Below, one piece after another: positions 1 through 4,208 of a stretch of DNA of 4,208 bases; positions within the stretch are counted from its first letter, which is position 1, and each line of letters starts with the position of its first letter. The stretch spans positions 1 through 4,208 of the IMG/VR virus record IMGVR_UViG_2660238600_000003. One strand, given 5' to 3'. The notes under the pieces are model-generated. The model did no database searches. It was not told the origin of the DNA and was given only the letters and a program-made list of their open reading frames with translations. The position numbers were made by a program, and so were the translations under genes. Source of the DNA: a virus. Taxonomy: Duplodnaviria; Heunggongvirae; Uroviricota; Caudoviricetes.

Positions 1-24
1 TCAGAGGCAGAAAACGTTGCTTAA
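1..24 (+). CDS. tnpA: Possible 3' end of the Tn3-family transposase gene (last 7 codons plus TAA stop inside the inverted repeat); partial, runs off the left edge.
   Basis: Frame 1 is open from position 1 (tca gag gca gaa aac gtt gct) to a TAA at 22-24 inside the inverted repeat. Tn3 tnpA is known to terminate within its terminal repeat. The fragment is too short to confirm by protein similarity. Confidence 0.35.
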   Translation, partial: SEAENVA

Positions 25-57
25 CGTGAGTTTTCGTTCCACTGAGCGTCAGACCCC
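1..57 (+). mobile_element. Right-hand terminus of a Tn3-family (Tn1/Tn2/Tn3-like) transposon. The 38-bp terminal inverted repeat is at 20-57; the transposon body lies to the left, outside the window.
   Basis: The reverse complement of 20-57 is GGGGTCTGACGCTCAGTGGAACGAAAACTCACGTTAAG, which matches the Tn3 38-bp terminal inverted repeat as I recall it, with the GGGG outer end at 54-57. The sequence changes character immediately after 57. The inner flank (1-19) differs from the bla-side flank found in pBR322-type vectors, so this looks like the tnpA-side end. Confidence 0.8.
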
Positions 58-1136
58 TAGTACCGAAGGGCTTTCGTCTGGGAAGTGAAGAAGCTCTCGC
101 CGGTGAACACGCAGATCATCTTCTGTATATTATCGATGAAGCCTCCGGTGTCAGTGATAGAGCTTTCGGTATCATCACCGGTGCTCTTACCGGACAGGAT
201 AACCGCATCTTATTGCTGTCACAGCCTACACGCCCAAGCGGCTATTTCTACGATACACACCATAAACTGGCCAAGCGTCCTGGTAACCCAGATGGCGTTT
301 ATACGGCGATCACGCTTAACAGTGAGGAATCACCGCTGGTAACGCCAGAATTTATCAAAATGAAGCTGGCGGAGTACGGCGGGCGTGATAACCCTATGTA
401 CATGATTAAGGTACGCGGCCTATTCCCTAAATCACAGGACGGCTTCCTTCTTGGACGTGATGAGGTTGAACGTGCGACGCGGCGGAAAGTCAAGATTGCC
501 AAAGGATGGGGCTGGCTTGCATGTGTGGACGTTGCTGGTGGTACAGGACGGGATAAGTCCGTTATCAATATCATGATGGTGTCCGGCCAGCGAAATAAAC
601 GCCGTGTAATCAACTATCGAATGCTGGAATACACAGACGTTACAGAAACGCAGCTTGCCGCCAAAATTTTCGCAGAATGTAATCCTGAGCGATTCCCAAA
701 TATCACCATAGCGATAGACGGCGATGGGCTGGGTAAAGCAACGGCGGATCTGATGTACGAGTATTATGGTATTACCGTACAGCGTATACGCTGGGGTAAA
801 AAGATGCATAGCCGTGAAGATAAGAGCCTGTACTTTGATAAGCGTGCTTATGCCAACGTTCAAGCCGCAGAGGCCGTAAAATCTGGTCGTATGAGACTGG
901 ATAAAGGTAATGAAACTATTGAGGAAGCGTCGAAAATCCCTGTAGGGATTAACTCCGCAGGTCAATGGAAGGTGATGAGTAAGGAGGATATGAAGAAAAA
1001 ACTCAATCTGCACTCACCAGACCATTGGGATACATATTGTTTCGCTATGCTGGCGGATTATGTTCCCCAGGACGAAGTGCTTAGCGTCGAAGACGAAGCG
1101 CAGGTTGATGAAGCTCTGGCATGGCTTAATGAATGA
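58..1136 (+). pseudogene. pacB: Terminase large subunit (P1 PacB-like), 5'-truncated at the transposon end. Walker B and the C-terminal RNase-H-like nuclease domain are retained; the Walker A region is missing.
   Basis: The frame of the 213..1136 ORF stays open back to the transposon boundary. The upstream in-frame translation reads ...[42 protein letters not shown], with a Walker B-like LLYIIDEAS at 120-146. Downstream motifs [14 protein letters not shown] (Asp codon 528-530), [11 protein letters not shown] and [14 protein letters not shown] are typical of terminase nuclease domains. No Walker A (P-loop) is present anywhere in the frame. The ORF-track start at 213 is a TTG with no convincing ribosome-binding site. 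The pacB symbol is inferred from the P1-like context, not from sequence memory. Confidence 0.7.
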
Positions 1137-1139
1137 ATA

Positions 1140-1156
1140 CTTGCTCTAATAAATTG
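1140..1156 (+). promoter_or_regulatory. C1 repressor operator (Op51-like), probably overlapping the promoter of the c4-icd-ant operon.
   Basis: CTTGCTCTAATAAATTG matches the asymmetric 17-bp P1 C1 operator consensus ATTGCTCTAATAAATTT at 15/17 positions. It lies 4 nt after the terminase stop and upstream of the c4/icd/ant genes. No clean -35/-10 pair could be assigned. Confidence 0.6.
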
Positions 1157-1287
1157 TGTTTTTTAACTGCCGATGTTACATTGAGCCTGACCTCTTGCGC
1201 CTTGAGGCATTTTCGGTTTATGCTTATCAGGCATCTCAGTAAAACGGGTGCCGGGATTGAGACCCCGGATAATGCAAAAGGCGACAC

Positions 1288-1310
1288 AGACGCCAAAAGC
1301 GTCTTTTTTT
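1288..1310 (+). terminator. Rho-independent terminator, plus-strand orientation.
   Basis: AGACGC (1288-1293), loop CAAAA, GCGTCT (1299-1304), then a run of seven T (1304-1310). On the opposite strand no T-tract follows the stem. Confidence 0.55.
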
Positions 1311-1355
1311 GTGTCATGCCATCGCACAGCCATACGTAGCGTTTAGCTCAGAGAT

Positions 1356-1442
1356 CAATGGTAGTGCTGGCTGGGCTGCCGAAAGGCAGGCCGGTTCCCT
1401 TTTGCGCCGGTAGTCTCAACCCAGTCAGTGCTACCGCCATTG
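1356..1442 (+). ncRNA. c4: c4-like antisense regulatory RNA (candidate; ends approximate).
   Basis: Non-coding stretch directly upstream of icd. A 14-bp interrupted closing stem pairs 1356-1369 with 1426-1442, and an internal GNRA-type hairpin lies at 1371-1390 (CTGCC-GAAA-GGCAG core at 1376-1389). Two segments are complementary to the icd translation initiation region: 1398-1405 CCTTTTGC pairs with 1477-1484 GCAAAAGG (Shine-Dalgarno), and 1356-1364 CAATGGTAG pairs with 1488-1496 CTGCCATTG (reaching the GTG start; one G-U). This matches the known P1 c4 a2/b2 versus a'/b' arrangement. Confidence 0.45.
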
Positions 1443-1495
1443 AGATTGAGACCTCACGCGGTAGCTCCTTAAATTAGCAAAAGGAGGCTGCCATT

Positions 1496-1717
1496 GTGGC
1501 TACTATCCCTACCCCTGCTCATCCTGAATTTATCTGGCGCTTTTACTCCTGCCAAAAACGTCACTATCACTTCGTTATTGCACCGACAGAAGATGAGGCA
1601 CGTTCTCAGCTTCCGGATGCTCCCTGTATTTTCTCTGCCCGCTTTTCTACCGATTCGCGCAATTCTCTCAGTTACTGGTGCCTCCCTGTTAACGCTTCTG
1701 CTCAGGAGGGACTATGA
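1496..1717 (+). CDS. icd: Icd-like small protein (73 aa; interference with cell division), first ORF of the immunity-I operon.
   Basis: GTG start at 1496 preceded by AAGGAGG (1481-1487, 8-nt spacer). The stop at 1715-1717 overlaps the ant1 ATG (ATGA). Size and position (between c4 and ant, overlapping ant1) match P1 icd. No protein-level confirmation was possible. Confidence 0.55.
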   Translation: MATIPTPAHPEFIWRFYSCQKRHYHFVIAPTEDEARSQLPDAPCIFSARFSTDSRNSLSYWCLPVNASAQEGL

Positions 1718-2829
1718 GAACGTCATTAGTCACCCGTGAAGAGATGATCGAGGCAATTGAACAGCACACTGCCTGTATCAGTACCAGGGATATACCGGGC
1801 GTTATTGCCAACTACTTCATGATCACCAAACAACTTTACCGGAGAAAGGACAAACACGCGGTTCACCGCATTCTGCTAACCGATATCCGTGAATACCTGC
1901 TCGAACAGGGTCATCTGAATTACGCAACCGTCGCAGCCGAAGCACGCAAGGAGGCACACAGAATGAAAGCTACTAACGTTAAATCAGAAAAAGTTCATGC
2001 ACCTTCAGTTCAGGAATCAGAGCTGGTGGTTGTTCAAAATCAGTCGGATGAAATTCCCGTTCTGGAGTGGCAGGGAGTGCGTGTCGTAACAACCGAAACT
2101 CTTGCTAAGGGGTATGGTACAGAAGCGATTCGCATTCGCCAGAATCATCATGAGAACAAAGTACGCTTTGTTGAAGCGAAGCACTTTTTCAAGGTTATTG
2201 GCGATGAGCTGAAAAATTTGCGGGTAGCTTTAAACTACTCACAAAATCCAGTCTCCCCCAAAGCGCGCTCTCTCATCCTCTGGACAGAACGAGGAGCTGC
2301 CCGTCACGCTAAAATGCTCGAAACCGATCAGGCATGGGCATTCTTTGAAAAACTGGAAGACAGCTACTTCCGACAAAAAGAACAGCAACCGGTCGCAATC
2401 CCCCAGACGCTTCCAGAAGCTCTGCGCCTGGCTGCCGAGTTAGCTGAACAAAAGCAACTTCTGGAACAGAAAGCCCACCAGCTAAATCAGCAGCTGGTGG
2501 CCGCCGCTTCTAAAGTCGATTTTGCCGACCGGGTATCAGTAGCTAAAGGGATCCTGATTGGGAATTTTGCAAAGGTCGTTGGACTTAAACAAAATGCGCT
2601 GTTTGCCTGGTTACGGGAGAACGGCATTCTGATAGCGTCCGGAGGCCGTAAAAATGTACCGTTCCAGCAGTACATCAACGCGGGGTATTTCACGGTGAAA
2701 GAAGTGGTGCTGGATGATGAAGATGGCTACCAGATACGGTTGACGCCTCAATTAACGGGTAAAGGCCAGCAGTGGTTGACGCGTAAACTGCTCGATGCTG
2801 GCTTGTTAAAACCGGTGGCGGCTGAATAA
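1714..2829 (+). CDS. ant1: Antirepressor Ant1 (371 aa), with a C-terminal region typical of phage antirepressors.
   Basis: ATG at 1714 preceded by AGGAGGG (1704-1710). The 371-aa product (about 42 kDa) contains an in-frame internal start giving a 288-aa product (about 32 kDa), matching the P1 Ant1/Ant2 pair. The C-terminal half (DFADRVSVAKGILIGNFAKVVG...FTVKEVVLDDEDGYQIRLTPQLTGKGQQWL) resembles phage antirepressor KilA-C-type domains, judged by eye. Confidence 0.75.
   Translation: MRTSLVTREEMIEAIEQHTACISTRDIPGVIANYFMITKQLYRRKDKHAVHRILLTDIREYLLEQGHLNYATVAAEARKEAHRMKATNVKSEKVHAPSVQESELVVVQNQSDEIPVLEWQGVRVVTTETLAKGYGTEAIRIRQNHHENKVRFVEAKHFFKVIGDELKNLRVALNYSQNPVSPKARSLILWTERGAARHAKMLETDQAWAFFEKLEDSYFRQKEQQPVAIPQTLPEALRLAAELAEQKQLLEQKAHQLNQQLVAAASKVDFADRVSVAKGILIGNFAKVVGLKQNALFAWLRENGILIASGGRKNVPFQQYINAGYFTVKEVVLDDEDGYQIRLTPQLTGKGQQWLTRKLLDAGLLKPVAAE
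1963..2829 (+). CDS. ant2: Antirepressor Ant2 (288 aa), in-frame internal start within ant1.
   Basis: ATG at 1963 with a strong AAGGAGG Shine-Dalgarno at 1948-1954 (8-nt spacer) inside the ant1 frame. P1 is known to make two Ant proteins from nested in-frame starts. Confidence 0.45.
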   Translation: MKATNVKSEKVHAPSVQESELVVVQNQSDEIPVLEWQGVRVVTTETLAKGYGTEAIRIRQNHHENKVRFVEAKHFFKVIGDELKNLRVALNYSQNPVSPKARSLILWTERGAARHAKMLETDQAWAFFEKLEDSYFRQKEQQPVAIPQTLPEALRLAAELAEQKQLLEQKAHQLNQQLVAAASKVDFADRVSVAKGILIGNFAKVVGLKQNALFAWLRENGILIASGGRKNVPFQQYINAGYFTVKEVVLDDEDGYQIRLTPQLTGKGQQWLTRKLLDAGLLKPVAAE

Positions 2830-2836
2830 TGGAAGA

Positions 2837-2858
2837 ATGCCCGGTTGATGCCGGGCAT
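2837..2858. terminator. Hairpin between convergent ant (plus) and c1 (minus); candidate bidirectional terminator.
   Basis: Perfect 8-bp stem ATGCCCGG / CCGGGCAT with loop TTGATG. It lies 8 nt after the ant stop (2827-2829) and just 3' of the c1 stop on the minus strand (2862-2864). AATTTATT follows on the plus strand; the T-tract is modest on both sides. Confidence 0.45.
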
Positions 2859-2861
2859 AAT

Positions 2862-3713
2862 TTATTGCGCGCTTTCGGGGTTGTCGTTTACTGGCTGCCC
2901 CTTCTTGGTTTTACGGCTGCGCGTAACTGATGCGGCTGACTTAACCTTTTTCTCTTCGCGAGTGATGGCAATTTGTTTTTTTACATTTTCAATATCTGCC
3001 AGGCGATATATTTTTGCTTGCGGCCAGCGGTCGCAGATGATCGGTTCTATGGAGTCATAAAGGCTAAATTTTGCTTTTTCGAATTCACCGTTGATGATAA
3101 TTCCATCACGGAGAGTTTCATCGCAGATAAACACGCCACACAGTGGCACATGGTAACTAACTGATTTACCATCATTGTAGTTAGGGCTACTGGAAATGTA
3201 GTGGACGCGCAGCATTGTTTCGCTAAAGCCGTGTACGCGCATACGGAATTTTTCATCCTCCGGGTACTGCTTCATTAGCTCTTTTGTTGCTTCCAGGTTC
3301 TCTATGTATTTCGCACTGTGCTCATTGATCCCCGCGCTTTTTTGGATGCGAATGTCCTTATCAATCAGATGAATAATGCGGCCAGCGGTCATGTTGACGC
3401 TGTTCACAGCTTCTGTCTGATAAGTTGTAACCTTACGCACACCGCGAAGGATGTTAGGCACTGGATATAAAATAGTCTTTGGGATATTGAGGTCTGGGTA
3501 CTGTTCCAGTTCCCGCGCCATTAAAGTCCATTTATCAATTTCAGCCTGAATGCTGTCAGTTTCTTTGAACGGTAGAACGACAACCGGGCGTACAGGACGA
3601 CCGTCGCTGGCTGTATCAACGTGTTGGGCGCGTGCAACAGCTTTTTTTAGAAAGAGATCCCTGAAGCTGACGAACTCCTGGTACAGTTGTTCGCCGTAGA
3701 CATAATTTATCAT
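2862..3713 (-). CDS. c1: C1-like primary immunity repressor (283 aa).
   Basis: Intact 283-aa ORF with a strong Shine-Dalgarno (GGAGGAGG 4 nt upstream of the ATG on the minus strand). The length equals that of the P1 C1 repressor. C1-operator-like sites occur in the window (1140-1156, 3808-3824), and a 69-aa gene lies immediately upstream on the same strand, as for coi-c1 in P1. Confidence 0.7.
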   Translation of the reverse strand: MINYVYGEQLYQEFVSFRDLFLKKAVARAQHVDTASDGRPVRPVVVLPFKETDSIQAEIDKWTLMARELEQYPDLNIPKTILYPVPNILRGVRKVTTYQTEAVNSVNMTAGRIIHLIDKDIRIQKSAGINEHSAKYIENLEATKELMKQYPEDEKFRMRVHGFSETMLRVHYISSSPNYNDGKSVSYHVPLCGVFICDETLRDGIIINGEFEKAKFSLYDSIEPIICDRWPQAKIYRLADIENVKKQIAITREEKKVKSAASVTRSRKTKKGQPVNDNPESAQ

Positions 3714-3781
3714 TGATCCTCCTCCAGAATTGACATGGTCAATAACGCCCGGCTGAGAAAACCGGTCATTACTGACCTATA

Positions 3782-3824
3782 TTATAGAGGGATCAAACGA
3801 AAATAATAGATTTATTAGTGCATT
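3782..3824 (-). promoter_or_regulatory. Candidate c1-proximal promoter with an overlapping C1 operator-like site (autoregulation).
   Basis: On the minus strand there is a perfect TATAAT (plus coordinates 3782-3787) about 70 nt upstream of the c1 ATG, with a weak -35. The minus-strand site at 3808-3824 (AATGCACTAATAAATCT) matches the C1 operator consensus at 14/17 positions. Confidence 0.3.
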
Positions 3825-4033
3825 TATTGTGAGTCTAACTGGTTAGTTGCCATGAGATATTCGATTGTGTCAGTGAGGTCATCCAGGTCGTCTTGGGTGA
3901 TGCGATACTCCTGATTGGATATCTTTGAGTAGTGTTCAGCAATGGCGCGGGCTGCGTCGGTTTCGGCAGGGTCTACAGATAAAGCGTTAGAGCAATGTCT
4001 AACGTCGTCGATGGTTGGTTGAATGAAAGCCAT
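3824..4033 (-). CDS. coi: Coi-like C1-inactivator protein (69 aa, acidic).
   Basis: 69-aa ORF directly upstream of c1 and co-directional with it. GAGG lies 7 nt upstream of its ATG on the minus strand. Size and position match P1 coi. No sequence-level confirmation was possible. Confidence 0.55.
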   Translation of the reverse strand: MAFIQPTIDDVRHCSNALSVDPAETDAARAIAEHYSKISNQEYRITQDDLDDLTDTIEYLMATNQLDSQ

Positions 4034-4208
4034 AATTATGCCTCACTGTATTGACAACACAGAGCCTGAAGCTCTGACCTACTGTTTCACCCATGATCCA
4101 TGCTGGGGTAATCTAACAACATTGCGCTGTGTGTAAGATGAGCAATGCATAGGGAAGGTGCGAACAAGTTCCTGATATGAGATCATCATATTCATCCGGA
4201 GCGCATCC

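Follow-up and report, generated by a model that had tools for sequence, protein, structure and literature searches.

A Tn2 insertion in pacB of a P1-derived plasmid that had probably already lost phage production

Background

The viral DNA analysed here (IMG/VR record IMGVR_UViG_2660238600_000003, positions 1 to 4,208, the whole of which we call the window; 4,208 nucleotides) begins with a few dozen bases of a Tn3-type transposon end and runs directly from there into a phage terminase gene. Did a resistance transposon strike the packaging gene of a working P1-like phage-plasmid and so end its life as a phage, or was phage production already lost when the transposon arrived? Tn2 is the commonest carrier of blaTEM-1, and the related transposons Tn1, Tn2 and Tn3 are distinguished chiefly by a short segment close to res and by their bla alleles. 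An earlier note, made from the letters of the window alone, favored the first answer; we argue below, with a probability of roughly 0.88, that Tn2 inserted in pacB of a P1-derived plasmid that was already without phage production, and disrupted a relic gene.

Results and discussion

The transposon end at the left edge of the window

Window positions 20-57 (CTTAACGTGAGTTTTCGTTCCACTGAGCGTCAGACCCC), read in reverse complement, reproduce exactly the 38-bp terminal inverted repeat of the Tn3 type, GGGGTCTGACGCTCAGTGGAACGAAAACTCACGTTAAG, which thus lies on the minus strand and matches the window once. This repeat had been recognized in the earlier note and is reproduced here; 200 dinucleotide-preserving shuffles of the sequence gave no match even when up to three mismatches were allowed. 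The transposon ends at base 57. Positions 1-24 (plus strand) translate as the last seven codons and the stop of tnpA (SEAENVA, then a stop codon at 22-24 that lies within the inverted repeat), and in plasmid pF404-1 the annotated coding sequence of the Tn3-family transposase ends at locus base 20024, which corresponds to window base 24. The 19 bp just inside the repeat are likewise the 3' end of tnpA, where the bla-side end of the transposon instead reads GGGATTTT... Since the window begins within the 3' end of tnpA, by translation and by the annotated end of the gene, this is the tnpA-proximal end (IRL) of the element, which we identify below as Tn2. The next five bases, TAGTA (58-62), are the right-hand copy of a 5-bp target-site duplication that flanks both inverted repeats in the complete plasmids pF404-1, CP098985 and CP099329.

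Both edges of the window lie 56-57 bp inside multicopy mobile elements (Tn2 at 1-57 and ISKpn26 at 4153-4208). This is probably the pattern of a short-read contig broken at repeats, and leftward extension of the source assembly is correspondingly unlikely.

The interrupted gene is pacB

The plus-strand reading frame that abuts the transposon (58-1136, with pacB codons from base 60 and the stop at 1136) is the 3' remnant of pacB, the P1-type terminase or pacase large subunit, and comprises codons 138-494 and the stop. From base 58 onward it is identical (100%, no mismatches) to pacB of plasmid p1-H9 (CP029181), an intact gene of 494 codons; RefSeq labels positions 213-1136 a hypothetical protein. 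The PacB protein is 88.7% identical to P1 PacB and matches the terminase large subunit family phrog_2 of PHROG with E values of 3e-40 and 4e-28. No family model in Pfam or NCBIfam matches it, so the terminase assignment rests on phrog_2 and on the identity to P1 PacB; a sequence search of PDB chains gave marginal matches to the Sf6 terminase (E = 0.15). The host element is P1-related, as the earlier note had supposed: besides PacB, it has P1-type c1 and coi genes (below).

The junction falls after nucleotide 411 (codon 137) of the 494-codon gene, between a P-loop-like motif, SSGHGTGKS (residues 55-63, beyond the transposon), and a putative Walker-B-like motif, LLYIIDE (window 120-140, plus strand, in the pacB frame); both motifs were assigned from the sequence itself. 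The terminase frame therefore does open at 58, upstream of its Walker B motif, as originally described. On the other side of the transposon the truncated 5' product would consist of the first 137 residues of PacB, then GV, and would end at a stop codon within the inverted repeat. Work by Skorupski and colleagues of 1992, listed in the record of phage RCS47, is said to have found pacB necessary for pac cleavage and packaging in P1.

Both junctions in complete public plasmids

A megablast search with window positions 1-130 found six complete plasmids that contain this stretch at 100% identity, and the junction is present in four of 5,426 complete E. coli genomes. The six plasmids are pF404-1 (OY754365, 126.6 kb) and pF138-2 (OY754384), both from hens in France; two plasmids named unnamed1 from poultry-farm faeces in the UK, one of E. 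coli (CP098985) and one of E. fergusonii (CP099329, 112 kb); pEF7-18-51_1 (CP063488) from a chicken in Laos; and pLR-46_1 (AP027538) from human faeces in Ecuador. Over the window pF404-1 shows no mismatches, CP098985, CP099329 and pLR-46_1 three each, and pEF7-18-51_1 ten; pF138-2 is 100.0% identical.

In pF404-1, CP098985 and CP099329 the two halves of pacB are separated by a 4,950-bp element with identical, inverted 38-bp ends, which contains blaTEM-1, a resolvase gene and tnpA and has TAGTA directly outside both ends. Plasmid pF138-2 agrees with these complete carriers in gene order and in its truncated PacB protein. Removal in silico of the element and one TAGTA from pF404-1 restores exactly the pacB of p1-H9, and when pF404-1 and p1-H9 are aligned over their whole length, the two alignments that flank the element share 5 bp of p1-H9. 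The empty site, with a single TAGTA, is found in p1-H9 and in phage RCS47. A further sibling free of the transposon is the MB30 plasmid (CP073970). The five bases at 58-62 are thus a genuine target-site duplication, and the whole left-hand context that had been predicted (tnpA, tnpR, bla, a second inverted repeat, TAGTA and the half of pacB with the Walker A motif) is present in the complete public plasmids. The window itself carries only 57 bp of the transposon, and for its own source we infer this context from the identical public records.

The three positions at which the window differs from the UK and Ecuador carriers (3648, 3890 and 3905) lie within 260 bp of one another in the c1-coi region, and the seven further differences of pEF7-18-51_1 are clustered at 1681-1855, around the end of icd and the start of ant. 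Such clusters suggest small recombination patches rather than gradual divergence. A literature search by carrier accession and plasmid name found no published description of the pacB::Tn2 allele and returned only incidental mentions of CP029181 and H9Ecoli.

Could the junction be an artefact, or the transposon only a remnant?

Common cloning vectors hold a Tn3-type 38-bp repeat, and the position of both window edges inside repeated elements, in the manner of short-read contigs, might raise the suspicion that vector or ColE1 contamination, or an assembly chimera, had joined such a repeat to phage DNA. Vectors of the pBR322 and pUC types generally carry the bla side alone; the 19 bp within the window's repeat are the 3' end of tnpA, unlike the bla-side sequence. 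Moreover, six complete plasmids from four countries, each assembled independently, share the identical junction, with a matching 5-bp duplication in all three plasmids in which both junctions were read. The tnpA-side 19 bp and the six independent assemblies rule this candidate out for practical purposes, and we give it next to no weight. The outcomes that the earlier note had named as fatal to its own reading, namely vector or ColE1 DNA upstream, or the lack of a matching duplication or of the 5' half of pacB, were both looked for in the public plasmids and neither was found.

A second caution concerns how much of Tn2 the source of the window holds. In two of the six carriers, pEF7-18-51_1 and pLR-46_1, only 1,930 and 2,925 bp, respectively, of the tnpA end are left, each abutting IS26, and bla, tnpR and the 5' half of pacB are gone from the site. 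IS26 cuts within tnpA at two different points (at 6133 of the L005 record for pLR-46_1 and at 7128 of the L006 record for pEF7-18-51_1). The Tn2 remnant and the window region of pLR-46_1 form part of a 231-kb IncFIB plasmid, an arrangement that suggests an IS26-mediated fusion. Because IS26 has removed bla in these two carriers, the window's 57 bp, which fit complete and truncated Tn2 equally well, are no proof of bla in its source, and the source might hold only such a remnant, with bla, tnpR and the 5' half of pacB deleted or moved. We consider this rather unlikely, since the window has no mismatches to pF404-1, which has a complete Tn2, and is 100.0% identical to pF138-2, which has the same complete gene order, but differs from the two truncated forms by three and ten mismatches. 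The proposed link between a resistance transposon and a phage-derived element therefore holds in part: blaTEM-1 is at the junction in four carriers, but it has been lost by way of IS26 in two of the six and is not guaranteed for the window's own source.

The element is Tn2

The earlier note had spoken of a Tn3- or Tn2-like blaTEM transposon, and the complete public plasmids contain exactly that, a 4,950-bp element with blaTEM-1, tnpR and tnpA. All 4950 of its 4950 bases are identical to the transposon of phage P7 (AF503408, positions 2619-7568; the "phi-Amp" ampicillin-resistance transposon), which Venturini et al. 2019 (PMC6906374) named Tn2 with blaTEM-1b. The P7 record itself labels the element Tn3 (and its resolvase Tn3 resolvase), and GenBank/PGAP annotations give only "Tn3" or "Tn3 family"; our typing as Tn2 consists of identity to the P7 element so named in PMC6906374, by which Tn1 and Tn3 are set apart indirectly. 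Several features expected of such an element are present: 38-bp inverted repeats, a 5-bp duplication with a matching empty site, a TnpA of about 1000 amino acids whose gene ends in the repeat, and blaTEM-1. TnpA (1001 amino acids) scores 1157.6 bits against the NCBIfam model for Tn3 family transposases, NF033527 (cut-off 500), and the β-lactamase scores 668 bits against the NCBIfam TEM family (cut-off 625) and is called blaTEM-1 at 100% by AMRFinder. The putative resolvase gene, tnpR, is divergent from tnpA and is annotated as a 185-amino acid "recombinase family protein"; models of serine recombinases match it only below their curated cut-offs. We accordingly assign the element to Tn2, a Tn3-family blaTEM transposon, on the strength of its sequence. 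An apparent match to P1 cin in pF404-1 (38.5% identity) is in fact Tn2's own resolvase.

Tn3 and Tn1 share with Tn2 the 38-bp inverted repeat, the gene order and the 5-bp duplication seen here. The Tn2 of P7 is the closest parallel, with the same 4,950-bp blaTEM-1/tnpR/tnpA sequence, 38-bp repeats and 5-bp duplication in a P1-family host; it is, however, located at the 3' end of ref with the duplication TGAAA, whereas here it splits pacB with the duplication TAGTA. P7, moreover, is still a viable phage, and the host element here appears unable to form particles.

Immunity region and plasmid maintenance

To the right of pacB the window carries a P1-type immunity region (c1 repressor, coi, and the c4 RNA-icd-ant genes). 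The C1 protein scores 611.6 bits against NF041318 (cut-off 500), Coi is 97% identical to P1 Coi, and the C4 antisense RNA (1354-1441) scores 75 bits against RF01695 (gathering score 45). An isrK-like RNA lies at 1231-1309 (56 bits), and icd, of an immI-type module, at 1496-1717; its stop is overlapped by the start of ant (1714-2829), which encodes a 371-amino acid antirepressor with ANT, ORF6N and KilAC domains. The gene tables list only the last 333 nucleotides of the ant open reading frame as a coding sequence. The immI-type module as a whole (1218-2829) lies between pacB and c1, a placement known from RCS47 and pTZ20_1P; in P1 it is elsewhere.

Phage RCS47 is like the host of the window in its P1-family backbone (96.3% identity to window 58-4208), in having the extra icd/ant module between pacB and c1, and in its TAGTA target, which is unoccupied. 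It differs in that its pacA (397 amino acids) and pacB are intact, it is classified as a phage, and its resistance gene (blaSHV-2) is not in a packaging gene. RCS47, SJ46 (blaCTX-M-27) and JL22 (blaCTX-M-55) are resistance-carrying P1-like phage-plasmids with a P1-family backbone, as here.

Just beyond coi, window positions 4153-4208 are the first 56 bp of an IS5-family element (GGAAGGTGCGAACAAG...), which is annotated as ISKpn26 in all of the matching plasmids; the insertion by coi is also present in p1-H9, which is free of the transposon. In pF404-1 a second ISKpn26 end occurs 7.6 kb further on, and the pair brackets a DMSO-reductase operon between coi and cre.

The Cre protein of pF404-1 is 99.7% identical to that of P1, and its RepA, ParA and ParB are 43%, 58% and 43% identical, respectively, to those of P1, so its maintenance module is predicted to be related to that of P1 but of a different type. 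Plasmid pF404-1 has two genes for RepB-family initiators, and the best tblastn match to P1 RepA is at record positions 7663-8475 (43%); the replication and mobilisation loci noted are at record positions 1-882, 7594-8478 and 33921-34406 (1-882 of L012, and 5495-6379 and 31822-32307 of L010). It carries a MobI(A/C) gene, yet is called non-mobilizable by MOB-suite. The MobI(A/C) gene fits the published gain of conjugation-related functions by P1-derived plasmids.

Loss of phage genes from the host plasmids

The three plasmids that were fully analysed have all lost P1 genes, though to unequal extents. In pF404-1 34% of the P1 DNA is retained and 43 of 83 P1 proteins are absent, whereas CP099329 retains 69% and lacks 14 of the 83. 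Plasmid p1-H9 (145.5 kb), in which pacB is free of Tn2, lacks the same 43 proteins as pF404-1 and, in addition, pmgP and ppp; it is collinear with pF404-1 at 99.2-99.98% identity. The proteins gp5, gp6, gp7, gp24, gp25 and gp26 are absent from all three. Among the genes missing from pF404-1 are those for the portal, head protease, lysozyme, holins, tail fibres, baseplate, tube and tape measure, as well as repL and ban; it has instead cellulose-synthase, autotransporter and DMSO-reductase genes, group II introns and many IS elements. CP099329 keeps genes for the portal, protease, lysis, sheath, tube, tape measure and tail fibres, and appears to be related to pF404-1 and p1-H9, with less decay than either. 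This E. fergusonii plasmid lacks the tciA-pmgL block of P1, and also carries several IS elements, ompC and a nar nitrate-reductase operon.

The gene directly upstream of pacB, pacA, has a 14-bp frameshift deletion between AAGCTGGCAT direct repeats, which leads to a stop at codon 264 of 397 (in pF404-1 at positions 13432-14697 of the L001 record, some 0.4-1.7 kb to the left of Tn2). The deletion is common to pF404-1, CP098985, CP099329 and the transposon-free p1-H9; P1 and RCS47 have an intact pacA without it. No complete set of head, tail, baseplate, lysis and packaging genes is present in pF404-1, p1-H9 or CP099329, and, judged by this gene content, the host is a P1-derived plasmid that should no longer be able to make phage particles.

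A published survey of P1-derived plasmids gives a similar picture. Its list includes p1-H9, with 33 of the 97 conserved genes and 3 tail genes, and pEF7-18-51_1, with 30 and 2, respectively; P1 has 15 tail genes. The survey also describes the loss of tail and other phage genes and the gain of accessory and conjugation-related genes, with resistance genes, especially against β-lactams, in 29 of 38 plasmids. Plasmids pF404-1, pF138-2, CP098985, CP099329 and AP027538 are not on the list, and in the sections consulted neither the pacB::Tn2 allele nor the pacA deletion is described.

Which came first, Tn2 or the loss of phage functions?

Since p1-H9 has an intact pacB without the transposon and nevertheless has the same pacA frameshift and gene losses, the loss of pacA and of morphogenetic genes most likely came first and Tn2 later, and this order, decay followed by insertion, is the parsimonious one. 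By this account pacA would have been frameshifted and the tail and baseplate genes gone before Tn2 arrived. Tn2 would then have entered pacB at codon 137/138 by ordinary replicative transposition of the Tn3-family kind, duplicating the AT-rich 5-bp target TAGTA, and the insertion was probably selectively neutral, ampicillin resistance aside, and would have left the lifestyle of the element unchanged. The resulting pacB::Tn2 allele now occurs in a small group of plasmids, mainly associated with poultry, from France, the UK, Laos and Ecuador, and IS26 has since cut off the bla side of the transposon in some of them.

The earlier note had suggested instead that the insertion crippled packaging and moved the element toward a plasmid-only lifestyle. 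This finds no support here, as the pacA frameshift is also in the transposon-free p1-H9 and tail and baseplate genes are missing. The stronger form of that idea, in which Tn2 hit the terminase of a functional P1-like phage-plasmid, ended its transfer as a phage and so began its conversion to a plasmid, draws on the requirement for pacB in P1 pac cleavage and packaging, and on CP099329, the least decayed carrier, which keeps many morphogenetic genes, such that the insertion could predate most of the decay. Against it, p1-H9 has an intact pacB yet carries the frameshift in pacA and lacks the same 43 genes; Tn3-family transposons are rarely lost precisely, which makes it most likely that pacA was inactivated first; and gp5, gp6, gp7, gp24, gp25 and gp26 are missing from every carrier examined. 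We therefore regard it as improbable. The history of the pacB::Tn2 carriers is, nonetheless, not tree-like. CP099329, which retains 69% of P1, and pF404-1, which retains 34%, carry the same allele, and the transposon-free p1-H9 shares the heavier decay; an allele on unequally decayed backbones together with a decayed plasmid that lacks it requires either recombination between sibling plasmids or parallel deletions. Two independent insertions of Tn2 at the same base and in the same orientation might also account for the different backbones, but seem less likely than recombination or successive deletions. We entertain as a distinctly speculative variant, with the odds well against it, that pacB::Tn2 is older than most of the decay, so that CP099329 and pF404-1 are successive snapshots and p1-H9 regained its pacB by homologous recombination, or else that the allele moved between backbones by recombination. 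If this were true, a single unique insertion would mark the steps of phage-to-plasmid conversion, or the exchanges, among poultry-associated Escherichia on three continents. Insertion of Tn2 into a plasmid already without phage production remains our preferred reading.

Implications

Phage P7 already showed that Tn2 can reside in a P1-family element, and the decay of P1-like phage-plasmids into resistance plasmids has likewise been described. The sequences concerned are publicly available with annotation, and the pacB::Tn2 allele adds a marker, and no new phenomenon or new biological question. A very short transposon end at the edge of a contig can be resolved reliably from complete public plasmids, and calls of a resistance gene on a phage-plasmid need a check of the phage gene set that remains. 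In the present case blaTEM-1 would not be spread as part of a virus; its movement would depend on transposition and on whatever means of transfer the plasmid has. The pacB::Tn2 junction is a handy marker of a small, mostly poultry lineage in E. coli and E. fergusonii from France, the UK, Laos and Ecuador.
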